A stretch of DNA of 64,000 nt from a virus. Taxonomy: Duplodnaviria; Caudoviricetes. How positions within the stretch are numbered: the first letter of the stretch is position 1; the number at the start of each line of letters is the position of its first letter. A program made the position numbers and the translations under genes. The notes below the pieces were generated by a model. It saw nothing but the letters and a program-made list of their open reading frames with translations, was not told the origin of the DNA and made no database searches. The stretch covers positions 1,312 through 65,311 of IMG/VR virus record IMGVR_UViG_2061766007_000017, one strand, 5' to 3'. Positions 1,108 to 54,255 of this stretch are shown here, piece by piece.

Positions 1108-1122
1108 TCGTAAGTCAGTCAA

Positions 1123-1254
1123 TTAGGGCCGAAAGTCTTTGAGTTTGCTTTCTGGCATTGTTCCACTTCCGGGAATCCAATACCACCATTCTCCGTTTTC
1201 CTTGTATTGTGGTATCCCATATCCCCATCCGGGAAAGAACTTTGAATCTGGCAT
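1123..1254 (-). CDS. Micro-protein, 43 aa, W/Y/G-rich (MPDSKFFPGWGYGIPQYKENGEWWYWIPGSGTMPESKLKDFRP)
   Basis: Manual translation; ATG 3 nt after the previous stop; below the track's size cut-off. Confidence 0.5.
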   Translation of the reverse strand: MPDSKFFPGWGYGIPQYKENGEWWYWIPGSGTMPESKLKDFRP

Positions 1255-1257
1255 AAG

Positions 1258-1413
1258 TCATCTAATTAGGGCCGGAAGTGATTGTGTTTCCAACTTTTGC
1301 AGAATCGCCCAGATGTCGAACTTGATGTCATCCTTCAAGTCCCCGTCCGGCAGTCTTTCCGCACGGGCGTGGGCCAGCTCTAGGGCATCCCTCAAAAGTT
1401 TCACCGTGTCCAT
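1258..1413 (-). CDS. Micro-protein, 51 aa, helical (MDTVKLLRDALELAHARAERLPDGDLKDDIKFDIWAILQKLETQSLPALIR)
   Basis: Manual translation; ATG 2 nt after the tail-gene stop. Confidence 0.55.
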   Translation of the reverse strand: MDTVKLLRDALELAHARAERLPDGDLKDDIKFDIWAILQKLETQSLPALIR

Positions 1414-1415
1414 TT

Positions 1416-4400
1416 CTAATCCTTGTAAGGTATTACCATCATTTCCCGTTTCACCATCATCTGCGTGACGGTCGCACCGACCCGCATCACCTTCACATTC
1501 CCGTTCAGTCGGTCAATCGCATAGACGCAGAAGGCATCCTGGGAGACTCCGACGCCACCCCTCGGAAGGTCGGACTGATTCGCCCAGGCCGGGTTGGAGG
1601 AATCGCCGTAAAGGGCGTTTCCGCAGGTAATGCAGAGGCAGAGTTGCTTGTTCTCCGAATTTTCATAGTACCCGATCCAGTCCTCGTGGCGATGTCCGCA
1701 TACGTAGCAGATGAACTCGGTCGTCTCATCCACCACGGAGAAGTCTGCCACCACCGAAACGGTCTGCGTGGTTACATCCGAATCTCCATTGTAGGTCGCT
1801 GAATGGTCTTCGTAGGTGAAGTTCACGGAAGTCCGGGAAATGAACGCATCCACCAGGAGTTCCACCACCCTCTTGTCCACATACGCACCGTCCGGCTCAT
1901 AGGATGCTCCGGTGTTCGGGACGGGCTGGCGGAACACATCATAAGGGGATTCGGCCACCACCTTGTCCTCCGGTGCATGGTAGGCGATTACGATGCCGTA
2001 GCCAGCCGGAGTGGAGAGAAGTGTTGCGATGAGCCAGTCTACCTGGGCCTGTCCTATTCTTCTGCGGTACACACCATCTTCATGCTGATTGAGGACAATC
2101 ACCCGGACTTTCTTGGCATCATAGTCCTTGTAGAAATAGCACTTGGTCGCAGGTGTCCCTGCAGATGCGAGGTATTCGTACTTTGTCGCAAGGTCGGAAA
2201 GGTTGTCGGCAAACAATGTGCTGCTCCCGGTGGGCAGGGATTCGTGGTTTCCGATGCAAGCGATTACATCCGTGTTGTGTTCGTTTGCGAAGTCAAAGAT
2301 GAACTGCGAGGCATCCCGTTTTTGATAGAGGACGGCATCGCCCGTTTCCATGATGAAGTCCACACCAAACTTGTCGCAGTATTCCAACAGGTTCTTCCAC
2401 CTCGGTGCATCCCCGTGCAGGTCGGTGATGTGGGCGAAAATGGGCATGGAATCCATCCCGTTCAATGCACCACCACCCGGAATCAACTCCCTGCGGAGTG
2501 CTTGCAGATTAATCTGCGTTGCCTCGTTCCGACCCACAACATTTTCATCCCGTTCATCGTAGTATTCAATGGCAAGTTTGCCGCTGTCTATGAGAGCCTG
2601 TATGTCGGATGCCAATATTGGTGCAACATAGGATGCAGAATTTGTGGTGTATGCTCGGAACACCGGACGGATGCATAATGCTGTATTTGGTAGGGTTATC
2701 TCGCCTCCGTCCACAAATGCCGCCGAACCACCCGCAAGCACTGAATGGTTTCCGTCGGAAGTTCCTACCCACCAATAGCCGCAAAGAATATAAGGCAAAC
2801 CATCTGGGATTCGGTGGCGAATCCTCATTCCAGGGAAAGGCACACAGATGTTGCTCTTGGTTGTGACTCTTAAGGGGTCATAGGTTGAGTTATGATTCAA
2901 ATGCCCAGATGAACTGGTATCGCAGTTAAGCAGACCACCCAAAGGCAGGGGTTTCCACTTGTTCTCATCTTCCAGGACTCCGCTTTCAATGAACTCCGTG
3001 TAGCCGGATTCGGAATCGTGTATAACGAAATCCTCCCCTCCAATTTTGACGGGTTTGTCATTTGCGACACCATCCACTTGCAGATGGAACGATGCACGGA
3101 TATATGCCGGGTTGTTGTTGCTGAAAGATATGGTTCGCGTTCCCGTGTATCCGTTTGAATTGTAATACACAACGAAATTCTTGTCGGCATCATACGATTC
3201 TATTCTGATGTTTGATGACCCGGCCCCGCCGAATTTCCAAACAATCTCCGTTCCGGGAGTGTATGGAATGAAATCCGTAGTCCCGCAACCATCAAGGTAC
3301 AAGATTTTCCCCTCGTTGATCCGCCCGTCCTCATAATAATTTTTCTTGCTACCGTAGATTGCCTTATCCACACCGATGTTGTTGCGGACGGTTTCCTGCT
3401 CGGTGTCGGTCAACTCCTGGGCGGTTTTGGTGAGGACTTCGGTGTCAATCTCTTCCTGTACCGCCTCAATCGCCTCCCGAACATCTGCGCCAAATCCTTC
3501 GTTCGGGACTTCCACATAGAAATTTCTTTCCGCAGATGCAAGACGGAAAACGAAATAGCAGTCCTCGGTTGCCGTGAAACTCCGTTTCTTTGTAGTGGAA
3601 CTATACTGCGTTCTCACAACATCGGAAACCGCATCACCGACTTCCGGAACATCTGCCGTTTTACCGGAAATAATCCACCCGGATGCGAGGTTGTGATGTA
3701 TCGTGATGGTCTTTCCTGCACTTACGGGAAGATACCAAAGCCGGAAACCCGTCTCTGCGACTATTTCATAAGGGAATGAACTTGTGATGCCTCTTCCGTT
3801 TACATTGGCAATATCCTCCGGCTGAATATTCCTTGTTTCATCAAACGTCAATTCGGCCTCTAACTGGCTGACTTTGGAGTTGGTCGCGTATTCTTCCAGG
3901 GCGACCGAAGTGGTGCCGATATGCACCCAGGAATAGGTGGAATCTCCGACCGTCACATACCTGTCGTAATTACCGGAAGTTCCAGTCGCGACAAGATAGA
4001 TCTTGCCGACGGTGGACGCGCTTGCGGCAAGGCTTCCGGTATAAGAATCGCTATCGTGGGTCACACTCACGCCAGCCGGGATGTTCGCGGCTACGGGAGT
4101 GGATTCCCCGTCCCAGGCTACGACGAACGCGCCGTTGCCGATGGTTTCGATGGAGATTCCCAGGTCTGCGATGTCGCCGTTGATGTCCTCAATATCCTCG
4201 TTGATAGCCGAGGCGATCCCGTCCACATAGGTCTTCACGGATTTCGGGGAGGACGTCTTGACGTCGGATGCCGCGTCCGCAGACACGTCCGTGGAAATGG
4301 TCGGCACGGTGGGAATGACACCACTTGCGAGGTCGGACGCGGGGATGCCGGTTCCTGGTTTCTGGTAGGCCGTGGCACCAGACGCGGCACCGCTTCGAAT

Positions 4401-4748
4401 CGTGGACAGGTCCTGGATGACGTCCTGCTTCCCGGAGACATCGGGTACGACCCCGCTGGCAAGGTCGCTGGCAGGGATACCGCCGGAGGGCTTGCTATAA
4501 GTGCCTGCGCCGATATTCGTCCGTGCCTGGGTTTTCTGCGAATCATTCAGCGACTGCGAGGTGTATTTAACGGCCTCCGGGTCGGAGCCTTCGCCGCTTC
4601 CGCTCTGCGCGGCCTCGTTGATGGCCGCGACGAGGTTGTTCTTCGCGGTGGTGTTCAAGTTGGAAAGGTTGCCAATGGAACTGCGTGCCACCTCGTCCTT
4701 GAGCGAGATGGGAACCCCACCGACAATGACCTGTTTAGCGTCACTCAT
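1416..4748 (-). CDS. Tail fibre/spike protein with C-terminal calcineurin-like metallophosphoesterase domain
   Basis: Fibre-type motifs (IGNLSNLNTTAKNNLVAAINE, YQKPGTGIPASDLA repeats, QARTNIG); C-terminal DLH, GDAV, GNHE, YHAP, GHRH metal-binding motifs. Confidence 0.75.
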   Translation of the reverse strand: MSDAKQVIVGGVPISLKDEVARSSIGNLSNLNTTAKNNLVAAINEAAQSGSGEGSDPEAVKYTSQSLNDSQKTQARTNIGAGTYSKPSGGIPASDLASGVVPDVSGKQDVIQDLSTIRSGAASGATAYQKPGTGIPASDLASGVIPTVPTISTDVSADAASDVKTSSPKSVKTYVDGIASAINEDIEDINGDIADLGISIETIGNGAFVVAWDGESTPVAANIPAGVSVTHDSDSYTGSLAASASTVGKIYLVATGTSGNYDRYVTVGDSTYSWVHIGTTSVALEEYATNSKVSQLEAELTFDETRNIQPEDIANVNGRGITSSFPYEIVAETGFRLWYLPVSAGKTITIHHNLASGWIISGKTADVPEVGDAVSDVVRTQYSSTTKKRSFTATEDCYFVFRLASAERNFYVEVPNEGFGADVREAIEAVQEEIDTEVLTKTAQELTDTEQETVRNNIGVDKAIYGSKKNYYEDGRINEGKILYLDGCGTTDFIPYTPGTEIVWKFGGAGSSNIRIESYDADKNFVVYYNSNGYTGTRTISFSNNNPAYIRASFHLQVDGVANDKPVKIGGEDFVIHDSESGYTEFIESGVLEDENKWKPLPLGGLLNCDTSSSGHLNHNSTYDPLRVTTKSNICVPFPGMRIRHRIPDGLPYILCGYWWVGTSDGNHSVLAGGSAAFVDGGEITLPNTALCIRPVFRAYTTNSASYVAPILASDIQALIDSGKLAIEYYDERDENVVGRNEATQINLQALRRELIPGGGALNGMDSMPIFAHITDLHGDAPRWKNLLEYCDKFGVDFIMETGDAVLYQKRDASQFIFDFANEHNTDVIACIGNHESLPTGSSTLFADNLSDLATKYEYLASAGTPATKCYFYKDYDAKKVRVIVLNQHEDGVYRRRIGQAQVDWLIATLLSTPAGYGIVIAYHAPEDKVVAESPYDVFRQPVPNTGASYEPDGAYVDKRVVELLVDAFISRTSVNFTYEDHSATYNGDSDVTTQTVSVVADFSVVDETTEFICYVCGHRHEDWIGYYENSENKQLCLCITCGNALYGDSSNPAWANQSDLPRGGVGVSQDAFCVYAIDRLNGNVKVMRVGATVTQMMVKREMMVIPYKD

Positions 4749-4770
4749 ATCGTCATGTTTTATTTTGTTC

Positions 4771-5301
4771 CTAACTGAAGACTATTGATTCCGTCGCGGA
4801 GTTGTAGGCAACGGACGAGGATGCCTCCGGGAAGATAAGGGATTCCGTCACGGGATCGTATTCCAGCGCAAGTGCATCCGTCAAGCCGATGTTCGCCCTT
4901 GCCTGTGCCTGCTGCGAGGCTGAAAGCACCTGCGGGGTACACCTGACAACATCCAATACATCCTGATCCTGCAAGGCTGTGTCCGCCTTCTCCAAGGAGG
5001 TCCTCACCGAAAGCGCGAGGTCGGCCTTCGGGATTCCGTAGTTCGGTTTCTGGTAAGCCCTTGCCGCTGCCGCCGCTCCGGAACGGATTGCGTCGAGGTC
5101 GGGAATGGCATCCTGCTTGCCGGCAATCAGCGCCTCTATATCATCGGGCGTAAGGCTTCCGTCTCCCCCGCCTCCGGGTTTGAGGTTTTTCAGTTTTTCT
5201 TCGAGCCGAACCCAGTTGGAGTCACGCACCGCCCTTTCATGGGTGATGGGGAAACGATTCCGTCCTCGTCTGTCTTTGATATAGTCTATCTTGTCTTGCA
5301 T
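4771..5301 (-). CDS. Tail fibre-associated structural protein
   Basis: Shares KQD.I.DL..IRSGA...AYQKP..GIP..DLA and QARANIG motifs with 1416..4748; N-terminus shared with 19053..19433. Confidence 0.7.
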   Translation of the reverse strand: MQDKIDYIKDRRGRNRFPITHERAVRDSNWVRLEEKLKNLKPGGGGDGSLTPDDIEALIAGKQDAIPDLDAIRSGAAAAARAYQKPNYGIPKADLALSVRTSLEKADTALQDQDVLDVVRCTPQVLSASQQAQARANIGLTDALALEYDPVTESLIFPEASSSVAYNSATESIVFS

Positions 5302-5323
5302 GGGGTCAGCGTTTATTCAGGTC

Positions 5324-8300
5324 TTACTGAGCGTCGTAGTCGTTCCAACTGTCAATCGTACCGGCGTATGTGGTAATATCGACATTCTTGAGTTCCATAC
5401 TTCCAAGGAAATGGGTGCCGAGAGCGGCTACCGCTGCGGCCGAGAAGTCGTAAAGCGGAACGCTGGCGGTTGTCCCGGTCGTTTTGTATGCGTATGCGAG
5501 ATAGTATCCGGCGGTAGGTGCGGCAAACAGGCCGTTGTCTGCGTTGAAGAACTTCTCGTGATAAGGGGAATGTTCGTTCTGCCACTGCTTTGTGACGGGG
5601 TTGTAGAACTGCAAGCCTCCGCTCGCCGAGCCGATAACCGTAATCCTCGTCGCGTCGATGTACTGGTACAGGGTGACCGCCTGGTAGGAGGTGGGGTTGT
5701 ACTGGCTGTTCCTTGTCAGTTTGTTCGCGGTGTAGCGCAACCGCGTGGCCCTCCATTCGGGGACGGTCACATCGTATCCGAGTTGCGTGATGCCGTTCGG
5801 GCCGAGGTCGTACATGGCGTTCTCGTCGTCCTCGGCGGAGAAGAACTTCAGCACCGGAGCGGAATCTCCGTTCTCCTGTCCCATCTTGATACGGAGGTTC
5901 CCGTCCACATCATAGAAGCAGATGAGCCCGCCCTGGATGGTGATGTACGAACCGTTGCCTGCGGTGCTGATGAAGTTGGCGAACAGTTCCTCTGCGTTGG
6001 CCTGGATGAAGTTGGCGACCGCTGCCTCAATCACGCCCGTGGCAATCTTGTCGGTCGTGATTGAACCAGGGAGAATGACCGTACCGTCAATCCTCTCCCC
6101 GCCCGGCTTGTCAGCCTCGTCGTTGATTTTCCCGACGAAGATGCCGCCGTCCACATTGACGAGACCGGCGTTCACAATACCAGCCGCAAGCGTTCCGTCC
6201 ACTTCGACCTTTGGGGCGGTGAGGACAATCTTGCCACCACTCGTTCCGAGACCTGCAAGGATTTCGATGCTGGCCTTGAGGTTGTCCCCCTGTCCAACGC
6301 CCGCCCAAATCTTGTCTGACTTGACCTTGATGCCGGAGACCTCGGTGAACGCATCGGAAAGGACGCAGTTCTTCACGTTGGCGACCCACGCCTCGTATTC
6401 AAGTGGACGGTTCGGGACCTCTTCGTACTCATCGAGGAACTCGTCATACGGATAGAGGGTTCCGTCGGACAGGTCCTTCCAGCACTTGCCGGCCTTGCTC
6501 ACGGAAAGGTCAATCTCGTCAGCCTTGATTTCAAGCGCGCCGAGCCTCGTCTCCTGGCCCTCAATATCCTCCACGGCCGCGCTGATCGCGTCTGCGGTCT
6601 GCTTGATACGGGAGAAAGAATCCGTGACAACCGTGAGTTCGTAGTTCGGGTATTTCCATCGTACATACTCCTCGTAGGTGCGCGTCGTAAATACCTCTGC
6701 ATATTCTTCCCGGAAGGCATCGTAGTCGAGGATGACCGGGCCATTGGCGGCGCTGTCGTCAATCCAGCAAAGGGTGTTGGTCTGGACAAGGGAGGTAATC
6801 TGGCCGGGGAACTGGTCGATGACGCTCATCTGGGACGCATACTCCTTAAGGGTCCATCCCTGGCCCTGCATCTCCGTCACATACTGGTTCCTCGTCTTGT
6901 TTGACGGAACGGCGTACCGGGCATACTGCTTCCCGTTAAAGGAGTTCTTCTCCCAGTAGTACCCCATATCGCCCACAATGCTCCGCAACTCGCCGGAGGT
7001 CTGCGTGATGTTGGAGAGGGCGGCACCGACCTCAATCTTCGCATAGCCGAGGACGTTGGTCACATACTGCTCATAGGTGTAGGATGAATAGGTGGACGAG
7101 CGGTTCGCGTATTGCGTCTCGAACGCATCGTAGGAGGCGTATGTGTTGCCGTTCTGCCACATGTATTTCGTCGTGTCCACGGACGCGGAGATTTCGTCCA
7201 CCGCCTGCTTGATCTGGGAGAACTTGCTTACAATGACAACCTCTTCGTAAGGCCCGTCCGGGCGGTTCGCGTCACCATCGGGACCCCCGTCGGCAGGTGC
7301 CTTCTGCATGAAGACACTGTAATCGTAGAGTGTCCCTTCCGGCTCGTCCTCAAGGAAGTCTTCCCAGAAAAGGTCGTAGGGATAAAGCACCTCCTCCCCG
7401 CTAATCGTCTTCTTCCACCAACTCTGGCTCGCGGCGATAACGCTGTTGAGTGCGGCCGAATCGACCGAGATGGTTGCGCTCTGGATAAGTCCACGGACCT
7501 GCTGCTCCGTCAGCCTCGCGGCGAGTTGGCCGAGAAGTCCGTCAAGGGTGATGTTTCCGCCCACCATCGTATTCCCGAAGAAGGTTGAGCCGGTTTGCAG
7601 GAGAATCTGCGCGTTCTGCGCGTTGGCGATGATGTCGGCAAACGCCTTCTTGTCTCCGGTCGCGCTCTGCCAACTGGTCAGAACGCCCCAAAGGCCATTC
7701 TCGTTGATGATTATCTGCTCCACATCGGTCCCGTTGATGCGGTTGAGCCGGTCGCGGAGGTCGCCGAGTTGGTCGGTGATGCTTCCGCCGATGGTGGACC
7801 GAAGGTTCTCCAGCGCCGCGTTCAGCGCGGCGATAACCTCGTTGTAGTGCTGGAGGTCGGCCTCCATATCGTCACGAAGGGCCTCAATCGCCTCCTGGAG
7901 GTCGTTGTACTCCTGCGAGGAATCGCTGTTGAAGTATCTGGCCGTGAAAGCGCTGGAGCGGGTGTATGAGTAGCCTGACGCGAGCGGCTGGTCGTAATTG
8001 ACCTGCATGAAGCAGCGGAGGTACGGATACTGTGCCGTCGGTGTTCCGGCGGTAAGCGACCAGGAGCCGCCAGCCGCGCTGCTCGGATCTGCGACCTCCA
8101 TCGGCGTAGCCTGCACGTTCTCCGAGGCGCACAACTTGTACCAGTTCTGCACGCCCGTGATGGAGCGACCGGGCGTTCCGGGCGTATCATCGTCTCCGCC
8201 ACCTCCACCACCGCTTCCGGAGATTTCCACATAGGCGCGGCCCTGGTCGTCGAGTTTCAGGGCGTACTTCTTCCCGGTGTTCTCGTAGCCGAGTTTCACA

Positions 8301-9103
8301 GTTCCCAACTTGCTCCCCGTAGCGGCCGGGACGGTCGCGTAGGCGCGGTGAACATAGTCCAGCGCGACGGGGAACTTGTCCCCGGACTGCGGGAAACCGA
8401 GGATGATGCCGCCGAGGAAGTCCTCGGACGCGGCAGGCAGGACATATTCGCTGCCACCGCCGCCACCCTCTCCGCCACCGCCAGAGGGGATGGCCTCAAT
8501 CATCTCGCGGAGGACACGGCCCTTGTCCGCTGAAAGCGCGTTGGTCTTGCTGGTGGAGTAAAGCGAATCCACGACGGAGAACGGTAGGCTCCCGCCACCC
8601 TCACCACCACCGCCACCGCCCTGCGTGGAGAACGGGAGGGTGAACGCCTTGCCGTTGGTCAGCCGGACCACGACGCTGGAATGTTCGCCGTCACCGGATT
8701 CCACCACATCGATGGACGCGAGGTTCGTGATGTGCGCAAAGGTGAGTACGGACTTGACCTGCAGGAAAGCGTCTTCGGCAATCACATTGTCGTAGTTTTC
8801 CGCGTCTTCTTCAGAAACGAGTTCAAACGCCTCATGCACATCGAATGAATAGAGGCCGTTCACGGGATCGCGCTCCATAAGGACAAGTTTGTAGTAGCCG
8901 GTCTTGGTCTGCATCCCGGCAAGGAAAGTCCAGGCGATTGCGTTCTCTGTTACGGTGTACACCTTCACGGGGAACTTGTTTCCCCCGCTAACCATGTACA
9001 CTTCCAGTTCCTTGCCCTCGATGTTGTGGATGTCCCCGTTGTTTTCGTACAGGAGCCACTGGATGGCAAGGTTTTTACCTTTTCTGAATCGTTGCGTAGC
9101 CAT
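5324..9103 (-). CDS. Large tail/fibre structural protein (1259 aa)
   Basis: Gly-rich linkers, NALSADKG and YVLPAAS..LGG fibre motifs, coiled coil, repeated S.I.Q...I...V motif; lies in the tail module. Confidence 0.7.
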   Translation of the reverse strand: MATQRFRKGKNLAIQWLLYENNGDIHNIEGKELEVYMVSGGNKFPVKVYTVTENAIAWTFLAGMQTKTGYYKLVLMERDPVNGLYSFDVHEAFELVSEEDAENYDNVIAEDAFLQVKSVLTFAHITNLASIDVVESGDGEHSSVVVRLTNGKAFTLPFSTQGGGGGGEGGGSLPFSVVDSLYSTSKTNALSADKGRVLREMIEAIPSGGGGEGGGGGSEYVLPAASEDFLGGIILGFPQSGDKFPVALDYVHRAYATVPAATGSKLGTVKLGYENTGKKYALKLDDQGRAYVEISGSGGGGGGDDDTPGTPGRSITGVQNWYKLCASENVQATPMEVADPSSAAGGSWSLTAGTPTAQYPYLRCFMQVNYDQPLASGYSYTRSSAFTARYFNSDSSQEYNDLQEAIEALRDDMEADLQHYNEVIAALNAALENLRSTIGGSITDQLGDLRDRLNRINGTDVEQIIINENGLWGVLTSWQSATGDKKAFADIIANAQNAQILLQTGSTFFGNTMVGGNITLDGLLGQLAARLTEQQVRGLIQSATISVDSAALNSVIAASQSWWKKTISGEEVLYPYDLFWEDFLEDEPEGTLYDYSVFMQKAPADGGPDGDANRPDGPYEEVVIVSKFSQIKQAVDEISASVDTTKYMWQNGNTYASYDAFETQYANRSSTYSSYTYEQYVTNVLGYAKIEVGAALSNITQTSGELRSIVGDMGYYWEKNSFNGKQYARYAVPSNKTRNQYVTEMQGQGWTLKEYASQMSVIDQFPGQITSLVQTNTLCWIDDSAANGPVILDYDAFREEYAEVFTTRTYEEYVRWKYPNYELTVVTDSFSRIKQTADAISAAVEDIEGQETRLGALEIKADEIDLSVSKAGKCWKDLSDGTLYPYDEFLDEYEEVPNRPLEYEAWVANVKNCVLSDAFTEVSGIKVKSDKIWAGVGQGDNLKASIEILAGLGTSGGKIVLTAPKVEVDGTLAAGIVNAGLVNVDGGIFVGKINDEADKPGGERIDGTVILPGSITTDKIATGVIEAAVANFIQANAEELFANFISTAGNGSYITIQGGLICFYDVDGNLRIKMGQENGDSAPVLKFFSAEDDENAMYDLGPNGITQLGYDVTVPEWRATRLRYTANKLTRNSQYNPTSYQAVTLYQYIDATRITVIGSASGGLQFYNPVTKQWQNEHSPYHEKFFNADNGLFAAPTAGYYLAYAYKTTGTTASVPLYDFSAAAVAALGTHFLGSMELKNVDITTYAGTIDSWNDYDAQ

Positions 9104-9106
9104 GTG

Positions 9107-9790: not shown

Positions 9791-10224
9791 TACAGGTTCA
9801 GGTTAGGGAAGGACACGCCAATCTTATCGGCGAAATTCTTGATGGCCTCGGCGCTGCGCAGATTCGTTGCCTTGGCACCCTTTGACTTCAAGTATGCGAC
9901 GGCTTCTTCCTGTGTCGTCACTTCGGGGACGGAGGTTTTCTGGACGACCGCGCCAGCGGCCTTCTCGGTCGCCGCGGCAGGGGAAATGCCTGCGCCCTCG
10001 TTGTTATAGACGCGAAGGAGTTTGATGAGACGACCGAAATACTGGCTATTTTCGATAATCTCCTGCTCCGTCCTGTCTGCCGTAGAATAGGTTGCAGCCT
10101 GGTTGTTCCGGCCATAACCGATGCGGCCACGCTTGAACTCAATCTCCAAGTATGCCTTGTTCGAGTTCGTTGGGATGCGGACAAGGGCTGTCGTCCTGCC
10201 CAGTACACCGTAAACTTTTACCAT
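9790..10224 (-). CDS. Capsid-adjacent hypothetical protein with small C-terminal helical domain
   Basis: 144-aa ORF directly after the MCP. Confidence 0.6.
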   Translation of the reverse strand: MVKVYGVLGRTTALVRIPTNSNKAYLEIEFKRGRIGYGRNNQAATYSTADRTEQEIIENSQYFGRLIKLLRVYNNEGAGISPAAATEKAAGAVVQKTSVPEVTTQEEAVAYLKSKGAKATNLRSAEAIKNFADKIGVSFPNLNL

Positions 10225-10244
10225 GTTGTAGTCGTGTTGTTTTT

Positions 10245-10279
10245 AGAAAGACGGGGGAGGTTATGCCGCCTCCCCCGTC
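10245..10279 (-). terminator. Intrinsic terminator after the MCP
   Basis: 11-bp stem GACGGGGGAGG/CCTCCCCCGTC, 8-nt loop, short U tract. Confidence 0.7.
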
Positions 10280-10294
10280 AGGAATAGTCGTGGA

Positions 10295-12031: not shown

Positions 12032-12059
12032 AACTATAAAGAATGAATGTGTTTCGTTA

Positions 12060-47073: not shown

Positions 47074-47085
47074 GGCCTGTTCGGA

Positions 47086-48327
47086 TTATAGGCTGTTGAT
47101 TAAGTCCTGCGTAGATTTCTTATTGCCGGTCGCGTAACCGGGCGTGTTCGTATCGGGTGACGCGGTTTCTGGTCTTTCCACATAGTTTTCGGGCCGTGTT
47201 CCGTACTGGCTCAAAACGGAACGACGCTCCGGGACCTGCGTAGCAAAGTCGTAGATGATGCTCTTTCGCTCGATGTCGGTCGCTGCCCTCCGGTACGCCT
47301 TCTGGAAGTCCTCGTTGTCCTTGACCGATGCGTAGGACTGTTCCACGAACTTGTCATATTCCGTGGCCGTCATATAGACCGGCGTTAGTTGTCCGTTCGC
47401 ATCGTAATAGAACAGGGTATTCCGGCTTGCACCACTTCCCCCACCAGAGCCAGCACGGAGAGCCGCCTGCGTGACAGGAGAGTTCGGATCGATTTCGTAC
47501 TCTCCCTTGTCGTTCTTCCGCAGTCCGTATCGTGCCGCGGTGATTGCCGCGTTCTCCCGTCTTGCCGCGGCACTTTCGCGCCGAGCCGCGGCCTGTTCTT
47601 CGAGTTGGCGTTCGTGAAGGTCCACATTGATTCCCGTAACGACCCCCTGCGTCCTGGCGGCACCGGCCTCCTTCGCGGTCTGCATCTTGACATTCATGGG
47701 AGCCGTAGCGGTCTGGTAGCCGACCTGTGCGGACTGCGCACCATGCTGATAGGCTTGGTCGGCCTGTCTGGTTGCCATGTTCAGCGCGGTTCCGGCATCC
47801 CCCATGCGTAGTTGAATAAGTTGCTGCTGAAGGGCGCGCTGACGGTCGCGGAGATTGTCGAACCTCGCCCGGTTCTGCTTCCAGTTCTCGTCGGCCTTTT
47901 TCATCCAGTCCTGCGAATAGGAGTGATACTGCTGGCTGACCGCATTATGACCGCCCACGGCAATCATGTTCGCTATGGATGCGGCCAGTTCGGTCGCACC
48001 AGTCCAACGGGCGGCATTCTGCTCGTTGTTGTATTGCTCGATTGCTTCCTGCTGGGCTTGGTCGGCTCTGGCCTTCTCCCCTGCGATGATGTCGGCGAAC
48101 TGGGTGTAACCCTCGTCCATCCGCTGCTTGTATATCTGCTGGGCCTGGTTGTAGGCTTCAGTCCTGGCTTGGTTGGCCGCGTCGAGGCTCTGCTGGTACT
48201 GCTGGCCTGCAGTAGTGAGGCCGGTCACAACTTCCTGCCCGGTCTGCTCCAGTTGTTGTGCCTGCTGCTCGTATGCCTCCTGCGCCTGTTGCGCTCTTGT
48301 TTTCTTCTTGTCCGGCATGGCTGTCAA
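47086..48327 (-). CDS. Putative internal virion (ejection) protein
   Basis: 413 aa, Q/A-rich helical, weakly hydrophobic patch; between the small ejection gene and the giant protein. Confidence 0.6.
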   Translation of the reverse strand: MTAMPDKKKTRAQQAQEAYEQQAQQLEQTGQEVVTGLTTAGQQYQQSLDAANQARTEAYNQAQQIYKQRMDEGYTQFADIIAGEKARADQAQQEAIEQYNNEQNAARWTGATELAASIANMIAVGGHNAVSQQYHSYSQDWMKKADENWKQNRARFDNLRDRQRALQQQLIQLRMGDAGTALNMATRQADQAYQHGAQSAQVGYQTATAPMNVKMQTAKEAGAARTQGVVTGINVDLHERQLEEQAAARRESAAARRENAAITAARYGLRKNDKGEYEIDPNSPVTQAALRAGSGGGSGASRNTLFYYDANGQLTPVYMTATEYDKFVEQSYASVKDNEDFQKAYRRAATDIERKSIIYDFATQVPERRSVLSQYGTRPENYVERPETASPDTNTPGYATGNKKSTQDLINSL

Positions 48328-48860
48328 GCGTCAGTTTTCTCTATTTCGTTCTTTTTCTTTGTAAGGCCGACATCCTGCCCGACGAGATTGATTCCTGCAT
48401 TGACGGCCTGACTTGCGGCCTGTGCGGTCTGCGCGGCTTGTTGCTGGTAAGATGCGGCCTGTTGCTGATTGAGAGCCGCATCCTGGGCGCGGTACTGCTG
48501 CTCAATCCTGTCCTTGTAACTGGAAGCCTGGGACGCGATGTCGGTCATGGTGTCCGACAGGGACTTGTTCGCGGCCTGTTGCTGGGCGACAAGTGCCCCA
48601 TCCGTGCCTCCTGCAACCACATTGGTCGCGCGGGCGCGGTCGTACTGCTCTTTCAGGAGTTCACGCTGACGGGTGATTGCCGCCTGTACATCTGAACGCT
48701 GGGTATAGTCCCTTGCCATCTGGATCTCATACCAACGGCGGTTATCATTCCGCTGCTGGTCTATGAGTTGTCTTGCCCTGTTATTGGCGACGGATGACTT
48801 GACTCCCCCGTAGATTGCAGAGCCGAGAGCAGCGGCTGCGCCTATCAATGCTGTTACCAT
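48324..48860 (-). CDS. Putative ejection protein (P22 gp7-like)
   Basis: N-terminal ALIGAAAALGSAIYGG followed by Q/A-rich coil. Confidence 0.65.
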   Translation of the reverse strand: MVTALIGAAAALGSAIYGGVKSSVANNRARQLIDQQRNDNRRWYEIQMARDYTQRSDVQAAITRQRELLKEQYDRARATNVVAGGTDGALVAQQQAANKSLSDTMTDIASQASSYKDRIEQQYRAQDAALNQQQAASYQQQAAQTAQAASQAVNAGINLVGQDVGLTKKKNEIEKTDA

Positions 48861-48884
48861 AGTGCACTTTCATTAACGATTGCA

Positions 48885-48929
48885 CGAATTAACGAAAAGC
48901 ACCGCTCGCTCTTGGTCTATCTTTCCCAA
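48885..48929 (-). promoter_or_regulatory. Putative late promoter 4 (16-mer-N21-TTAATTCG) for the ejection/giant/tail-tube operon
   Basis: Identical 16-mer at 48914-48929. Confidence 0.7.
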
Positions 48930-48972
48930 CAAAGCCACTACTCTCCACTACTTTAGTGGGGGTGTGACAAAT

Positions 48973-48999
48973 AACACCCCGAATTGCAGTCGGGGTGTT
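48973..48999. terminator. Bidirectional-looking intrinsic terminator after rusA
   Basis: AACACCCCGA/TCGGGGTGTT 10-bp stem with T runs on both strands. Confidence 0.7.
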
Positions 49000-49006
49000 T
49001 TCTTCG

Positions 49007-49372
49007 TCAGACTTCGACAAGACGGAATTCAATGTGAGGATTCGCCTTGTCAATGAACTTCTCCGCGACAATCTTCACGCACTTGTTGTCGTTCTTGATT
49101 GTACGGGTGTATTGCAGGCAGTCCAGGATGATTTTGAGGGCATTGTCAAGGTCGTGGCTCATCGACGCGAAATAGATGCGCAGATGAAACTCAAAATAGC
49201 CCTGTATCATCATGTTCCGATACGGACCTACCTGCATGTAGAAAGTGTTCTCGTAAGCCTTAAGACCAGGCGTTTTCGCAAGACTACCGTGACCGGCAAT
49301 CGTGACTATCTTATAGGAATTTGATTTGGAAGGAGCCTGTCCTACGATTGTCTGCCAGGGATGCTCTGTCAT
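49007..49372 (-). CDS. rusA: RusA-like Holliday junction resolvase
   Basis: DLDNALKIILDCLQ...IKNDNKCV motif. Confidence 0.8.
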   Translation of the reverse strand: MTEHPWQTIVGQAPSKSNSYKIVTIAGHGSLAKTPGLKAYENTFYMQVGPYRNMMIQGYFEFHLRIYFASMSHDLDNALKIILDCLQYTRTIKNDNKCVKIVAEKFIDKANPHIEFRLVEV

Positions 49373-49677
49373 TTGCGCGTCTTTTCTTCCGATAGTTCGT
49401 CCAACTCGTCCTTAAAGGTCTTGACAGGCACCTCACCCTTGTATTCCACGGATGCCATCTTCGGGGATATGTACGGAAGGAGTTGGAGCATGATGGAGCA
49501 TTTCTTCTCAGGATCGTCTATGCTGTCGTAGTTGTGAAGGAATTCCTCCCATTTGCTCTCCACGAACTTCGAGATAAGTTCACGCACCTCTTTGGTGGAC
49601 TTGTTAGGCGTTCCCTTTACCCGTCCACCCTGCCGCCCCTTTCCGTCGGCCTTCTCCCTTTTGTTCCCACCGGCCAT
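49369..49677 (-). CDS. Terminase small subunit-like protein
   Basis: Likely start ATG 49677 (MAGGNK); GGRVKGTPNK motif followed by helices. Confidence 0.5.
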   Translation of the reverse strand: MAGGNKREKADGKGRQGGRVKGTPNKSTKEVRELISKFVESKWEEFLHNYDSIDDPEKKCSIMLQLLPYISPKMASVEYKGEVPVKTFKDELDELSEEKTRK

Positions 49678-49681
49678 GTCT

Positions 49682-50260
49682 CTACTTGTACTTGTATGCC
49701 GGGCCGAACGGCTGCATCGGACGCTTGACGATTGACGCACCGCTGAATCCGCTTACGATGGCATCCTCAATTTCCTTCAACTGAGAGCCATATACTGAAG
49801 CCTGCGGCATACCGAACTGGGAATACCAGTCGAACAGGGCACCAAAGACAAGGAAACGATGGATGTATTCTGCCAGCGGACGGAGCATCTGGTCGTTAAA
49901 CTCCGCATCCAGAACAAGGTCGTACACATACTTGCCTTCTTCCAGCGTGATCTGGTCATTGGCATATCCGTTTTTCCTTGGATTAAGGACGGACTGAATC
50001 TTTGTCCGGAGTTTCGCGTCACGGAATTCAACATACCGCATGAGCACTGCACCGTCCACATCCTCGGATGAATCGGACGACACGGCATTACCAGTTCGGT
50101 CTGCCATGTCCGTCCGTGCGTCCACATGCTTGTGGGTGTTCAGGTTGATGTCCTTGAACACCTCGCCCTTTATAATCTCTATCTTGCGCTCCTTGGTCTC
50201 GTTTGCTTCATCGGAGTCAGCGAGGATGATTGGGGCGATGAATCCGTATCTGCGTGTCAT
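49682..50260 (-). CDS. Putative adaptor/ring protein (paralog 3)
   Basis: Helical-beta-helical layout similar to its two upstream neighbours; in a late operon. Confidence 0.5.
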   Translation of the reverse strand: MTRRYGFIAPIILADSDEANETKERKIEIIKGEVFKDINLNTHKHVDARTDMADRTGNAVSSDSSEDVDGAVLMRYVEFRDAKLRTKIQSVLNPRKNGYANDQITLEEGKYVYDLVLDAEFNDQMLRPLAEYIHRFLVFGALFDWYSQFGMPQASVYGSQLKEIEDAIVSGFSGASIVKRPMQPFGPAYKYK

Positions 50261-50718
50261 ACTCTCGGCGGTTTCTTGGTGTAAAGTATGCTTTCTATCT
50301 CGTTCCCCGCTTCAATGGCAAGAAGGCTATGCTTGTTTGACAAATCTACGAGCGAGACAATGGAATAGAATTTCGTAAGGGCGTACTCCACCATAAAGGT
50401 GTTCATGGCTTCTTCCAGCGGAATGGCCGTACCGACGGCCCTCCTTTCTGACAGGACGAACTCGAACACATATTCTGGCGGAAGTTCATGCTGATTGTCT
50501 TTCTCCCACTTGAAGTCGGCCTTAAGGAATCTTGCGACCACCGCGCGACCGGCGAGACGGGACGCGGCCTCGGAGACGCACCGCTCTATTTCGTACATCT
50601 TCTCCGTTCCGGCCTCTGCCCTGTAACGGGCATCGGCATCCTCGATGACGGACACCTCACGATGCGAGACGGAGCGGAGTTTGTCCAGAATCTCCTGTGT
50701 GTGTAGCGTGATTACCAT
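50257..50718 (-). CDS. Putative adaptor/ring protein (paralog 2)
   Basis: Overlapping stop/start coupling with neighbours; similar layout. Confidence 0.5.
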   Translation of the reverse strand: MVITLHTQEILDKLRSVSHREVSVIEDADARYRAEAGTEKMYEIERCVSEAASRLAGRAVVARFLKADFKWEKDNQHELPPEYVFEFVLSERRAVGTAIPLEEAMNTFMVEYALTKFYSIVSLVDLSNKHSLLAIEAGNEIESILYTKKPPRV

Positions 50719-51185
50719 TGCGTAACTGGATGCTTGCGGTATTTGAGAAGCGCAACGGCCTTGTCCATAGAGGACTGGGTGCGTGCGGTGTATTCAGGGA
50801 CCAATGCCGGCCTGCGCTGCTGGAACAGGGCGTTGCATGAGAACAGGACAATGTAACGGTCAAGTTCGGAATCCATCGTTGCGGCCATTGTCTCGTCGAA
50901 GTCCGGGACATGGAACAGGAGACGGGGAATGACACCGGAAATCTCGCGCGGGTCTTCGTCGGAGTGTACGGCCAGCGGAGCGTACTTGGTAACATCGAAC
51001 TCCCGCTTGACGAAAGCGCTCACCGCATCGTCGATGAATCGGTCGATGGTGCTCCTGTCCTTTTCCGTCAGGACGATGCTGTCATATAGAGCCGTCCCAG
51101 TGTCGGAATATGCTTCGTCAGCGACCTTCGACACTTCCTCGTCTATCATGTCCCACAGGCGGGATTTGTCTATCACATAATACAT
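50712..51185 (-). CDS. Putative adaptor/ring protein (paralog 1)
   Basis: First gene after late promoter 5. Confidence 0.5.
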   Translation of the reverse strand: MYYVIDKSRLWDMIDEEVSKVADEAYSDTGTALYDSIVLTEKDRSTIDRFIDDAVSAFVKREFDVTKYAPLAVHSDEDPREISGVIPRLLFHVPDFDETMAATMDSELDRYIVLFSCNALFQQRRPALVPEYTARTQSSMDKAVALLKYRKHPVTQW

Positions 51186-51189
51186 ATCG

Positions 51190-51234
51190 CGAATATATCT
51201 GCAGGTTATCGTTTTCGTGGTCTATCTTTCCCAA
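51190..51234 (-). promoter_or_regulatory. Putative late promoter 5 (16-mer-N21-TATATTCG)
   Basis: Identical 16-mer at 51219-51234. Confidence 0.75.
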
Positions 51235-51318
51235 ATGGGAAGGGTTGGAGAGGCTCACACCCGTCCAACCCAGCAACCGCACAACAACAAAAACGGCAAA
51301 AAAAATGTGCGGCATTCA

Positions 51319-52059
51319 TCAGTTCAATTCATAGTGGTTTCTCAATATAGTCTCAAGCGTGGGGCTCCATCCGGCGTTTGTGTTGGTTATCCATGTAACG
51401 CTGCCAACTGGACGCAAACATGGATGCGAGGTCTTAACTTCGTCCTTGAAAGTGTCGGACCACCAGATAACACCGCCGTAGAATCCCTCGTTAAAGTAAA
51501 TGTTCTCCACGATGTAACTCTCATGATCGCAACCGTACCTGTCGTAGATTGATAACAACTTCTTCCGTTCATAGTACACAGGGAGGTGGCACACCCAGTT
51601 TCTTTCAGACATTTTCTCTTTCCGGCACAACTCCCTCGTCTTTCCAAGATCCCGCCACCATCCTGTCTCTTTCCTATAATCGAAGTCCGGAATGACCCCG
51701 GCATCATCTTCCATCTTAAGGGCCTTTACAGTGTCGAGCGTAAAGTCCTTTACGGCATACATGTCGTCACAGGCATAAATGAATCCATCCGTATCCGGAT
51801 ACGCATCCATTACCTTCCTGAACTTGTGAACCATGTCCAGATGAGGAAGGTACTGACCAGGAACAGGGTCTATGCGAGGGCATTCAATGAAGGTGATGTC
51901 GTCTCCCGTGTCCACGATCGGGTCATGGTCGCCGACCACCACGATGTGATACGGCTCCTTGAAATGCTTGCGCCAGCCGGTCACGGCCAGTTCCAGCTCT
52001 CTCCCCTGGGCCTCTTTCGCAAGGTATGGGATTACTACCAATATTTCTTTATTCTCCAT
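51319..52059 (-). CDS. Glycosyltransferase-like protein (GT-A fold candidate)
   Basis: ILVVIPY first strand, IVVVGD, FIYACDD (DxD-like). Confidence 0.55.
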   Translation of the reverse strand: MENKEILVVIPYLAKEAQGRELELAVTGWRKHFKEPYHIVVVGDHDPIVDTGDDITFIECPRIDPVPGQYLPHLDMVHKFRKVMDAYPDTDGFIYACDDMYAVKDFTLDTVKALKMEDDAGVIPDFDYRKETGWWRDLGKTRELCRKEKMSERNWVCHLPVYYERKKLLSIYDRYGCDHESYIVENIYFNEGFYGGVIWWSDTFKDEVKTSHPCLRPVGSVTWITNTNAGWSPTLETILRNHYELN

Positions 52060-52072
52060 AATGAGTTATCTA

Positions 52073-52157
52073 TAAAAGCCACGGATGAACCGCAAAGACC
52101 CGTGGCAGGACTGTACTAAAACCGAAATAACGATATGCGTAGTTTGCGGTTCCATCG
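52073..52157 (-). promoter_or_regulatory. Terminator/antiterminator-like RNA switch in the leader of the GT-like gene
   Basis: GCCACGG/CCGTGGC stem + TTTTAT; its loop pairs 10/10 with an upstream GAACCGCAAA (plus-strand 52143-52152 vs 52087-52096). Confidence 0.5.
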
Positions 52158-52179
52158 TCTCACGACGGGTTTTATCTTG

Positions 52180-52359
52180 CTACTTCTTGATGGCCCCCAG
52201 GCAATCGTCGCAGATGTGACGGTCACCCATAGACCAGCCACGACGGACAAACTCTGCCTTGATACTTTCCACGGTATCATTGGCCGTGTACACGCGCCTG
52301 CCGCACCGGTCGCACTGGACGGACGAGGCGAGCCTGCTGTTTGGATAATTCTTGATCAT
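52180..52359 (-). CDS. Small zinc-ribbon protein (59 aa; CDRC...CDDC)
   Basis: Manual translation. Confidence 0.6.
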   Translation of the reverse strand: MIKNYPNSRLASSVQCDRCGRRVYTANDTVESIKAEFVRRGWSMGDRHICDDCLGAIKK

Positions 52360-52361
52360 GG

Positions 52362-52877
52362 TTATCTTTTTCCGTTGTTAGTAAACCGCGCGATGTCGCT
52401 ATCCGAGAAGATGTTTCGCGTTGGCATCTGCCGTAGCAACTTAAAGAGTTTCCCGTAGGTGTCTTCGTCGTAGATGCGGTCGGCATAGAGCATGAGCAGA
52501 CGCACGCCGACATTGGCGGCCCCATTGAAGGCGTCGTAGCGCTGGGCTCCGGTGAGCCCGTCGTTGTCGTCTCCGGCGAAGAAGGTCGCGTCCTCTATGA
52601 GCGGTTCAATCTTGTTGAAGAAGTGCCACCCTGCGGCCTTGACGGACTTGCAGTAGTCGGTGAGGCCCTTGAGGATCTCGTTGTCGTTGGTAGGCCGGAA
52701 GCCGTGCCTGGCATAGACGCCTTTGATGCGGTTGAACACATCCTCGACGACGACCTGGCATGAGTTGGCGAGTTGTACCATCAGTTTGATCTCGCTGGGT
52801 ATTGAGGACGCATGGATGTCCCTGTCCGCCGCTTTCGCGGCTGCGGCATTGATGTCGCTGCGTGTCTTATCCGCCAT
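52362..52877 (-). CDS. Hypothetical helical protein (171 aa)
   Basis: Likely start ATG 52877 (MADKTRS), overlapping the previous stop. Confidence 0.65.
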   Translation of the reverse strand: MADKTRSDINAAAAKAADRDIHASSIPSEIKLMVQLANSCQVVVEDVFNRIKGVYARHGFRPTNDNEILKGLTDYCKSVKAAGWHFFNKIEPLIEDATFFAGDDNDGLTGAQRYDAFNGAANVGVRLLMLYADRIYDEDTYGKLFKLLRQMPTRNIFSDSDIARFTNNGKR

Positions 52878-53040
52878 AGTAGTAGTCCTTTCGTTCATAG
52901 AATGGACATTCTCCTTCATGGTAGTCGGGGTCCATTTCCGGGGCCTCGAAGTCCTCGTTGTTCAGCCATTCCTGATGTCGTTTACAGGACATCCGCAGGG
53001 GGCAGGCTTCGCCGGAGCAGAGCAGGTAGTTAGTCTTCAT
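52867..53040 (-). CDS. Small Cys-rich protein (57 aa; CSGEACPLRMSC...C)
   Basis: Manual translation; overlaps both neighbours. Confidence 0.6.
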   Translation of the reverse strand: MKTNYLLCSGEACPLRMSCKRHQEWLNNEDFEAPEMDPDYHEGECPFYERKDYYYGG

Positions 53041-53170
53041 CTTCCTTCTCGTTAAGGTATCGGATAATCTCGTTGATTTTCTCCATTAGTTCCAGATTGG
53101 TCGGAACACTCTTGCCATAAACATCCCCGTACCGGTCTATGATGTCGTAAGTTTCTATTTCTTTAATCAT
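53030..53170 (-). CDS. Micro-protein (46 aa; MIKEIETYDII...MEKINEIIRYLN)
   Basis: Manual translation. Confidence 0.55.
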   Translation of the reverse strand: MIKEIETYDIIDRYGDVYGKSVPTNLELMEKINEIIRYLNEKEDED

Positions 53171-53186
53171 TTCTCGTCCTCCTTTT

Positions 53187-53522
53187 CTACTTGATGAGTT
53201 TGTACATCTTCATAAATCCGTTTTCCTCTTTAATCGGAATGTATCCGCACTTCATATAGAAATCCTGCACCCAGTCAGTAAGGTTCGAGTTAAGGTCGAT
53301 ACGGAAGATGCCATTTTCGAGGCAATAAGACTCGCAGGCAAGCATAAGGTGCTTTGCGATTCCCTTCCTTCTTTGCGGAGCTATGACGGAAAGGCCGGAA
53401 AGGTAGCATACGCCGGGCTGGCTGTCCTCAAAGGACATTTCCACGATTGCGCTTCCGTCTGATTTAATAATCTTTACGGTCTTGCCCCACGGCCAGGTGT
53501 TGTGATGCCAGATTAGTTTCAT
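53187..53522 (-). CDS. GNAT family N-acetyltransferase
   Basis: Motif A LSVIAPQRRKGIAKHLM; FYMKCGY motif B. Confidence 0.85.
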   Translation of the reverse strand: MKLIWHHNTWPWGKTVKIIKSDGSAIVEMSFEDSQPGVCYLSGLSVIAPQRRKGIAKHLMLACESYCLENGIFRIDLNSNLTDWVQDFYMKCGYIPIKEENGFMKMYKLIK

Positions 53523-53557
53523 ATCTCATTTAATTAGGGCCGGAAAGTAGAGATGAT

Positions 53558-53794
53558 TTAATCTTCTTCGAGGATGGTCACCTTTGTAACGATTGCTTTG
53601 GGAAAAGTCATTGTATCACTGACAAGTTCATCGTCCGCATCATAGTTCTGCGCGATACAAATTATATCGTCAGTTTCTTTAATAACCATTCCAAAAGAAA
53701 CGCACCGCATAACATCGGCAACAACATTATCTATGTGCTGCCAATTTGGTGTTCCTGAACAAATGTCCAACCATTCAATCTTTACAATCTTCAT
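53558..53794 (-). CDS. Small beta-barrel-like hypothetical protein
   Basis: 78 aa; VKIEWLD...CVSFG...FPK pattern. Confidence 0.6.
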   Translation of the reverse strand: MKIVKIEWLDICSGTPNWQHIDNVVADVMRCVSFGMVIKETDDIICIAQNYDADDELVSDTMTFPKAIVTKVTILEED

Positions 53795-54056
53795 CGGTTA
53801 TAACTTTTATTTTGTCAATCGTTATTGGCTTATAAACCCGTATCTGCCAACATCCATCAGTATAATTGTTATCTTTACTATTTATAAACGGGTCATAATC
53901 AACTTGAAGAACTATCTCTCCATAGCATTTTGCTTCTTGAATGTCAGCGGCCAAATAAGTACACCTACTCGCACCAAGTCCTCTTACTCCAAATAGAACA
54001 CCTTCTGTTTGAATTTGTTTCCAACATTCTTTGCTGGTTCCGTGATACCAAATCAT
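53775..54056 (-). CDS. Minimal ADP-ribosyltransferase-fold protein
   Basis: WYHGT first strand, YLA, A..YG, WQIRVY strand: H-Y-type ART core. Confidence 0.5.
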   Translation of the reverse strand: MIWYHGTSKECWKQIQTEGVLFGVRGLGASRCTYLAADIQEAKCYGEIVLQVDYDPFINSKDNNYTDGCWQIRVYKPITIDKIKVITDEDCKD

Positions 54057-54078
54057 ATTAGTTTATTTGGGCCGAAAG

Positions 54079-54255
54079 TTAATGAGTTCGTAACTCCTTC
54101 CGATAGTCATTCATTTCATTGTACCGCACCATCTTATGATAGCAATCTGCACAAATGATTTGCCCCCAATAATTAAACCCTTCGTGCCTTGTGTCAAACC
54201 CTTTATTACAATGGGGGCAAACGGCTCGGTATTTAAAATCTTTGTTCTTGCTCAT
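54079..54255 (-). CDS. Small zinc-finger protein (58 aa; CPHC...CADC)
   Basis: Manual translation; starts at the stop of the upstream gene. Confidence 0.6.
   Translation of the reverse strand: MSKNKDFKYRAVCPHCNKGFDTRHEGFNYWGQIICADCYHKMVRYNEMNDYRKELRTH

Follow-up and report, generated by a model that had tools for sequence, protein, structure and literature searches.

Small genes in a virus genome recovered from metagenomic data are separated by copies of a short non-coding motif, always on the strand of the genes that they follow. We propose, with a probability that we put at about 60%, that these copies are a strand-specific gene-junction linker of ~28 nucleotides (nt), which would act both as a portable stop and restart signal for translation and as a recombination point for the shuffling of gene cassettes. 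The DNA analysed, hereafter the window, spans 64,000 nt and corresponds to bases 1312-65311 of the complete 65,311-bp virus record IMGVR_UViG_2061766007_000017, which has terminal repeats (genome G000). The family to which the copies belong has the consensus (A)CTTY-CGGCCC-TAA-W-TGA-Y-TGA-NNT-ATG, in which CGGCCC and the AA of the following TAA are invariant in an alignment of 40 sequences.

Four copies of the motif at two loci of a temperate phage

A search of the window for ACTTYCGGCCCWAAT, allowing up to two mismatches, returned exactly four matches, at 1122-1136, 1265-1279, 53533-53547 and 54065-54079 (copies 1 to 4), against 0.42 expected in shuffled sequence; none of 100 shuffles held four. 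The copies are all on the minus strand, the coding strand of both loci, and the one at 53.5 kb carries a one-base insertion, ACTTTCCGGCCC, in its 5' half. A sequence profile built from 40 family members picked out these four sites of the window again (E 6e-9 to 2e-4; next match E>1). Pattern search, shuffles and profile thus confirm the four same-strand copies reported by an earlier, sequence-only reading of the window, and the part of the 65,311-bp genome outside the window holds no further copy.

The window phage is temperate, with a lambda-like gene layout, and encodes an integrase, a CI-like repressor, a RecE-family PDDEXK exonuclease, a replication initiator, RusA, late operons and tail fibres; no Rfam family or tRNA was found in the window. 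Copies 2 and 1 form array A, where the last late operon ends, directly 3' of a tail-fibre gene. Copies 4 and 3 form array B, within a nin-like run of small genes that extends from replication to RusA.

The copies coincide with the stops of small open reading frames (ORFs), as the sequence-only reading had observed. A 43-amino-acid (aa) ORF ends on the TAA of copy 1 and a 51-aa ORF on the third stop (TGA) of copy 2, the stop of a 78-aa ORF lies 18 nt before the CGGCCC of copy 3, and the TAA of a 58-aa ORF overlaps the first base of copy 4. The spacing to the following start codon holds as well, since the next ATG comes 14, 14 and 12 nt after the CCC in copies 2, 3 and 4, and copy 1 has ACG in its place. 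The block at 53.5-54.3 kb, which had looked AT-rich by eye, is so by count: GC is 0.36-0.47 per ORF across 53030-54255 versus 0.535 for the window. The identities proposed for the cargo stand in part. The GNAT acetyltransferase is upheld by Pfam, the zinc finger draws weak Pfam matches, and the ART fold is a protein-atlas lead. No relatives of the 93-aa ORF to which that lead belongs were found in IMG/VR.

Stops in all three frames and the start codon behind them

The element always lies directly after a gene end. In the 29 instances in which the upstream frame was open through the 300-nt context, its stop fell inside the element in 6, and in the other 23 it preceded CGGCCC by 3-15 nt. Stops and start codons were counted in 119 unique instances anchored on the 5' half only. 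The TAA-n-TGA-n-TGA run offers one stop per frame, and all three frames are closed in 100/119 instances, compared with 0.8% of random 14-mers matched in composition. Variation falls exactly on the two spacer bases that separate the stops, the stop codons being constant; where either of the later two stops is not TGA, 19 of 43 such variants are TAA or TAG, when ~22% would be expected under neutral change. Of 22 motif-to-motif ORFs, which run from a canonical ATG to the next copy, 14 end on the stops of the element (5 at +6, 4 at +10 and 5 at +14) and so make use of all three frames. As a consequence, unrelated micro-proteins share the C-termini ..RP, ..GPN or ..ALID immediately before the stop.

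The next ATG stands at +18 to +23 in 61/119 instances, with a mode of +20, 3 nt past the last stop. No ORF lies behind 50/119 copies (~40%), which are followed by a GC hairpin (often GGGGGCC-TCCG-GGCCCCC), a terminator or a canonical Bacteroidota-type promoter.

Other kinds of signal were sought at the copies and rejected. A conserved RNA structure is contradicted by a pairing probability that is flat and at background across 73 instances, and no dyad symmetry was detected in the 40-sequence alignment. Pairing with 16S rRNA, in the manner of a termination upstream ribosome-binding site (TURBS) or a Shine-Dalgarno (SD) site, was assessed using a 16S gene taken from a genome in the family of a Candidatus Cryptobacteroides metagenome-assembled genome (MAG) described below; it yielded only chance-level matches of 7-10 nt with G-U pairs allowed, one of them to the h45/3'-tail region. 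Scans for sigma-70-type promoters or intrinsic terminators at the copies gave counts no higher than in shuffles. A restriction-site hot spot was discarded, as the genome shows no avoidance of GGCC or CCGG.

Gene gain, loss and replacement at the motif

Across the family, copies bound small, unrelated, same-orientation, promoterless ORFs arranged in arrays. The largest array comprises 10 cores in 1,465 bp with micro-ORFs between them, and has no blastn match in 50,697 GenBank phage records. At ~20 loci the first copy is directly 3' of a gene for 444-1173 aa. Seventeen of the proteins encoded before a first copy (275-1173 aa, some cut by the end of the locus) have related N-termini and divergent C-termini, and 2/17 match tail-fibre PHROGs; the first copy at these loci has 0-3 very small unrelated ORFs behind it, and a further copy closes each of them. 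A close relative of the window phage (G004, 76-81% nucleotide identity) has arrays at the same two loci as G000, filled with different cassettes.

Comparisons between relatives bear out the proposal that breakpoints of gene gain, loss and replacement map to the motif. One case is a pair of contigs, L121 and L161, which are 99.8-100% identical on both sides of the junction. L121 carries exactly one extra unit of 380 bp between two cores, where L161 has a single motif copy; this unit is made up of the element's 3' half, an ATG, an ORF of 117 aa and the element's 5' half, and the two copies that flank the cassette have little in common beyond the core. A second case joins G004 to G003, a distant relative of the window phage (20-45% protein identity). 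The two genomes share a 478-bp block, 97% identical, that runs from the CGGCCC of one copy to the CGGCCCTAA of the next; both flanks of this block are unrelated and there is almost no other nucleotide similarity. The half-site in G003 reads CGGCCCTAA and then continues into unrelated DNA.

A 255-bp part of the transferred cassette occurs twice in G003 (1373-1627 and 64577-64831, 97.6% identical), once at the very end of the contig, and represents either a duplicated cassette or an effect of assembly or terminal redundancy.

In L007 and L078 the fibre genes have 94% identity through their first 984 nt and are unrelated beyond that point, and identity returns only for ~55 nt, comprising the motif and a hairpin, before it is lost in the next gene. 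The GNAT gene of the window recurs in 7 other phage contigs (L083-L089) at 72-83% nucleotide identity, with homology confined to the ORF and different neighbours each time; in L083 and L084 the element lies at the 3' end of the GNAT gene instead, the ORF ending ..DFRP on the TAA of the element. The gene thus behaves like a mobile unit of one gene.

In divergent contigs, homology frequently begins or ends at the 9-nt core CGGCCCTAA. A homology partner on one side only was found at 18/31 informative motif junctions versus 130/372 other gene ends (odds ratio 2.6, p=0.018). We also compared 259 contexts pairwise, using exact cores only. In pairs with the same downstream and different upstream sequence (32 non-redundant), identity is lost at -1 in 16 and within -4 in 25; in the 20 pairs with the same upstream and different downstream sequence, divergence sets in from +9 onward. 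The informative part of this comparison is how closely divergence hugs the core. All junctions fit short-homology recombination and site-specific exchange alike.

Distribution among phages and hosts

Exact-pattern scans of IMG/VR returned 29 and 39 loci and a metagenome scan >120 loci; among the matches listed there are about 260 distinct contexts, on viral or metagenome contigs of rumen type. Cultured phages gave none, going by the blastn comparison of the 10-copy array with GenBank phage records. Most of these matches are not due to chance, because sequence beyond the search pattern is also conserved, and the extended consensus is kept in phages without any other nucleotide similarity. G003 and G004 both carry the motif, as do G001 and G002, which have almost nothing in common with the window phage; G002 and G000 share only a fibre fragment by blastp, and blastp across G000-G004 revealed no protein common to all of these motif-bearing genomes. 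Complete genomes hold 1-10 copies, always on the local gene strand and mostly clustered.

In 185,579 scanned genomes of bacteria and archaea the motif was matched 21 times, fewer than chance would give, which leads us to reject a host-wide signal. Only 4/21 matches have surroundings like those of the family, and these four come from short contigs of two rumen MAGs: L095 and L108, from the Candidatus Cryptobacteroides MAG, bear canonical copies, and L092 and L104, from a Verrucomicrobia MAG, bear a motif-like copy next to tandem repeats. Each of the four contigs is probably of phage origin. The presence of the motif in phages and its lack in bacterial chromosomes indicate a phage-specific element and not a signal of the host. 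The second suggestion of the sequence-only reading, a translation or processing signal in a host lineage largely without SD sites, is therefore sustained by half: the motif does not replace SD sites throughout the host, and what survives is a role in translation, to which the conserved three-frame stop and the fixed ATG point.

Gene starts in the carrier genomes show no SD sequence (no GGAGG) and are A-rich at about -12 to -14, consistent with a Bacteroidota host. The carriers appear to be uncultivated, mostly temperate phages of rumen Bacteroidales-type hosts.

One further group of contigs, some of them from human-gut metagenomes (L062, L064, L068, L070, L072, L081 and L082, together with L135, L140, L149, L174, L185 and L188), holds a motif-like sequence, TTCCGGCCCTAATTGATTGA, as an inverted pair ~50 bp apart inside a GGAACAATGT iteron region that also has a long inverted repeat. 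The context differs from that of the cassette linker; it may be an origin, and it may have no relation to the linker. Both this group and the Verrucomicrobia contigs L092 and L104 were set apart as a separate, possibly coincidental context.

A proposed portable linker and the points against it

The observations are best accommodated by a plug-and-play junction. Any ORF joined upstream of the linker would be terminated by it, and the terminating ribosome, released 3-11 nt before the next ATG, could restart there; the resulting translational coupling would allow promoterless cassettes to be expressed in a host that makes no use of SD sites. The shared sequence would also be the place at which recombination adds, deletes and swaps cassettes and fibre tips. 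As the linker is the sole sequence common to otherwise unrelated phages, crossovers would fall there, and cassettes and fibre tips located between good copies would spread. The exchange itself would most likely proceed by short-homology recombination through phage or host functions. Short homology is the simpler reading because G000 encodes a RecE-type exonuclease, because the element has neither dyad nor hairpin and blastp across G000-G004 found no enzyme common to all carriers, and because loss of a unit between direct repeats could account for how L121 and L161 differ.

Several points weigh against this account. The enrichment of breakpoints over ordinary gene ends is just ~2.5-fold, and the 9-20 bases of identity available are short for homologous recombination. 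Since only exact cores entered the context comparison, identity inside the core was built in and part of the sharpness of the boundaries is selection. The 43 variants behind the test of stop preservation are not all independent. Many upstream genes have their own stop 3-15 nt before the core, so that the stops of the motif are often redundant, and restart cannot be the whole function given that ~40% of copies have no following ORF. The stop and restart logic also leaves the role of the most conserved part, CGGCCC, unexplained.

Alternative explanations

The sequence-only reading had suggested a recombination junction for integron-like single-gene cassettes. Its first half is supported, as gain, loss and replacement map to the motif and arrays exist; the integron-like mechanism is not borne out. 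In that mechanism CGGCCCTAA would be a true site-specific site, at or beside which a dedicated recombinase, the phage integrase or some other enzyme, would cut, excising circular cassettes and inserting them at resident copies, an arrangement that we consider unlikely. The mosaic junctions examined can all be explained by exchange inside the 9-nt core, the copies flanking the L121 cassette share little else, and the G003 half-site is CGGCCCTAA joined to unrelated DNA; promoterless cassettes in one orientation, arrays of up to 10, and cassette ORFs that stop inside the site, as with the attC sites of integrons, all conform to it, G000 encodes a tyrosine integrase, and such a site would account for the invariant core. 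However, the element has no dyad symmetry and no hairpin, blastp found no protein common to all carriers (G000-G004), the fit to the core is partly built in by the use of exact cores, and the L121/L161 pair is explained by deletion between short direct repeats without any enzyme. The sole integrase of the window phage (60913-62133, tyrosine type, generic phrog_1) adjoins neither array and is 4-7 kb from both. A phage-owned, integron-like system, in which a recombinase acting at CGGCCCTAA moves circular micro-gene cassettes and the site doubles as a three-frame stop and restart adaptor, is a doubtful prospect; if true, any captured ORF would be expressed without a promoter or an SD site.

The element could instead be mainly a regulator-binding site, recognised by a protein on DNA or by a protein or RNA on mRNA, that switches accessory genes on or off, recombination being a by-product of its conservation; the invariant CGGCCC has no other explanation. 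Precedents would be the start-associated sequences (SAS) or stoperators of mycobacteriophages, or a RegA-type translational operator. The element is asymmetric, in a single orientation, at gene junctions, overlaps stops and keeps a fixed distance to the ATG, and it is missing from host genomes and tied to unrelated genes, the same features as reported for SAS (PMC3203893). We nonetheless regard this reading as quite unlikely: no candidate factor is common to the divergent carriers, genomes have only 1-10 clustered copies, many copies are followed by a hairpin or terminator and not by a gene, and what variation keeps is the stop codons, not the individual bases. A promoter read by the RNA polymerase holoenzyme of the host or by a phage-specific one, giving short-leader or leaderless accessory transcripts, is very improbable, even though ~25 nt of conserved sense-strand sequence containing TTGACT lie upstream of ATGs and the stem-loops of T4-type phages are a precedent for mobile promoters that mediate shuffling (PMC2839356). 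The copies do not match the Bacteroidota -33/-7 pattern, sigma-70 scans are at chance, a terminator hairpin or a canonical host-type promoter comes within 15 nt behind many copies, and the copies are between tightly packed genes, not at operon starts. Operon starts in the window phage have another invariant, promoter-like 16-mer, TTGGGAAAGATAGACC, present 5 times on the minus strand (first bases 51234, 48929, 20500, 18453 and 12910); each precedes a minus-strand operon, and together they mark five late operon starts. These are probably late promoter or activator sites distinct from the junction motif, which is thus not the late promoter of this phage. A promoter role for the element is unlikely on these grounds.

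Comparison with known systems

The linker favoured here has likenesses to several known systems. The attC sites of integrons are imperfect inverted repeats of 57-141 bp that fold as single-stranded DNA and are cut by IntI encoded beside the array. Integron arrays, like those found here, are made of small unrelated genes that lack promoters, face the same way and each end in a copy of the site; cassette borders lie inside the site, ORF stops are often inside it, and single cassettes are gained or lost. In contrast, the present element is ~28 nt long, asymmetric and in phage genomes, and no IntI-like gene or attI was found linked to it, although the IntI-specific insertion was not searched for. 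Stoperators of Cluster A mycobacteriophages are bound by the repressor and dispersed 24-30 times per genome, whereas the copies described here are clustered and number 1-10.

The promoter early stem-loops (PeSLs) of T4-type phages combine a terminator-like stem-loop with a sigma-70 early promoter (PMC2839356, PMC4122927). PeSLs, too, are short conserved intergenic elements beside small variable ORFs in hyperplastic regions, breakpoints of insertion, deletion and replacement between close relatives map to them as they do to our element, and gene shuffling is thought to run by recombination between copies. Our element differs in having no promoter consensus or hairpin of its own, the GC hairpin being found only behind terminal copies; it is instead a three-frame stop with a fixed ATG, translational and not transcriptional, and it also bounds tail-fibre genes. 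The SAS of Cluster K mycobacteriophages is 13 bp long and holds the SD core, with 11-19 copies per genome and none in that of the host, and has no proven function (PMC3203893). Both are short, asymmetric, one-orientation repeats a few bases before the ATGs of unrelated non-structural genes, often with the upstream stop inside. Asymmetry, single orientation, nearness to an ATG and absence from the host are all found in the present element, but 50/119 copies have no ATG behind them. It moreover lacks GGAGG and has chance-level 16S complementarity, and a three-frame stop or a cassette-boundary role is not described for SAS.

In the tail-fibre and nin-type regions, short conserved patches at module borders allow swaps of unrelated fibre tips or genes in T-even and lambdoid phages. 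Tetart (1998) and Clark (2001) reportedly described recombination at conserved motifs of T-even fibre and adhesin loci, and Susskind and Botstein (1978) are said to have discussed boundary or linker sequences in lambdoid phages. Those patches are coding motifs or ordinary regulatory sites within one phage group, whereas here one non-coding linker is common to phages without other nucleotide similarity. The element thus lacks defining features of each of these systems, namely the hairpin and linked IntI of attC, the promoter and stem-loop of PeSLs and the SD core of SAS, yet shares their logic; we regard it as a mobile junction of a translational rather than transcriptional kind.

Phage genomes are mosaic and the sequences at which they exchange are seldom visible; here, one linker marks module borders across unrelated phages. 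The tail-fibre tips swapped at these borders determine host range, and the cargo of the micro-gene arrays probably serves host takeover or anti-defence. A stop in every frame with a start three bases on suggests how captured promoterless genes get expressed in hosts that lack SD sites. The old linker hypothesis of modular phage evolution becomes directly testable, a motif search gives a handle on accessory-gene arrays and fibre ends in rumen viromes, and the linker could be a natural junction part for the engineering of Bacteroidales phages.

Features of the two arrays and other observations in the window phage

The components of both arrays are listed in Table 1.

Table 1. Coordinates of motif copies, cassettes and adjoining features in arrays A and B of the window
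Feature	Position	Strand	Description
21-nt tandem repeat and GC hairpin	1015..1107	-	Between copy 1 and the next gene (610-999)
Junction motif copy 1	1110..1136	-	Terminal copy of array A; stops TAA, TGA, TGA; all three frames closed; no cassette behind it; profile 32.1 bits, E 5.6e-9
43-aa Trp-rich cassette ORF	1123..1254	-	From the canonical +20 ATG of copy 2; ends ..KDFRP before the stop
Junction motif copy 2	1252..1281	-	Stops TAA, TAG, TGA: middle codon differs, still all three frames closed; ATG of next ORF at 1254-1252, +20 from the C of CGGCCC; profile 26.7 bits
51-aa ORF	1258..1413	-	Just 3' of the tail-fibre gene; enters copy 2; ends ..PALIR before the stop
Tail-fibre-like gene, 1110 aa	1416..4748	-	Metallophosphoesterase-like end; array A downstream
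GNAT acetyltransferase cassette, 111 aa	53187..53522	-	Pfam match
Junction motif copy 3	53520..53546	-	Stops TAA, TAA, TGA; all three frames closed; GNAT ATG at 53522-53520 (+20); profile 25.6 bits
Two-ORF cassette, copies 4 to 3	53558..54056	-	GC 0.36-0.38
78-aa ORF of two-ORF cassette	53558-53794	-	phrog_25889
93-aa ORF of two-ORF cassette	53775-54056	-	Possible ART-like fold
Junction motif copy 4	54054..54081	-	Degenerate first copy of array B (CCCAAAT); only two frames closed; ATG at 54056-54054 (+18); profile 18.1 bits, E 1.6e-4
58-aa zinc-ribbon ORF	54079..54255	-	Weak Pfam matches

A 48-aa ORF in another frame (1115-1261) is a less likely alternative to the 43-aa cassette ORF of array A, whose ..DFRP ending before the stop is also found on unrelated ORFs in L083 and L213. 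Behind copy 1, the 21-nt tandem repeat CGCAGTATTTTCGCAGTTCAC (2.8 copies, 1038-1096) lies between the motif and the GC hairpin GGGGGCC-TCCG-GGCCCCC (GGGGGCCTCCGGGCCCCC, 1015-1032). The same hairpin is directly 3' of the motif in L007, L010, L016, L025, L078 and L095, the tandem repeat being an insertion in the window phage.

A single ORF of 7,942 aa (23245-47073, minus strand) takes up 36% of the genome. It sits after a weak match to a T7 gp14-like internal virion protein (48324-48860) and has homologues in G004, where it is cut by contig ends, and in G003 (5,360 aa, 26% identity). Within the replication-initiator gene (55841-56788), a perfect 22-nt tandem repeat, TTGTCGGTCGTTTGTCGGTTGC, is present in 2.8 copies (56404-56465) and looks like origin iterons. 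Several short palindromes are strongly avoided in G000, with observed versus expected counts of 13/224 for ACGT, 3/128 for AGCT, 1/59 for CTAG, 88/311 for GATC and 6/41 for CGGCCG, which suggests pressure by several host restriction systems.

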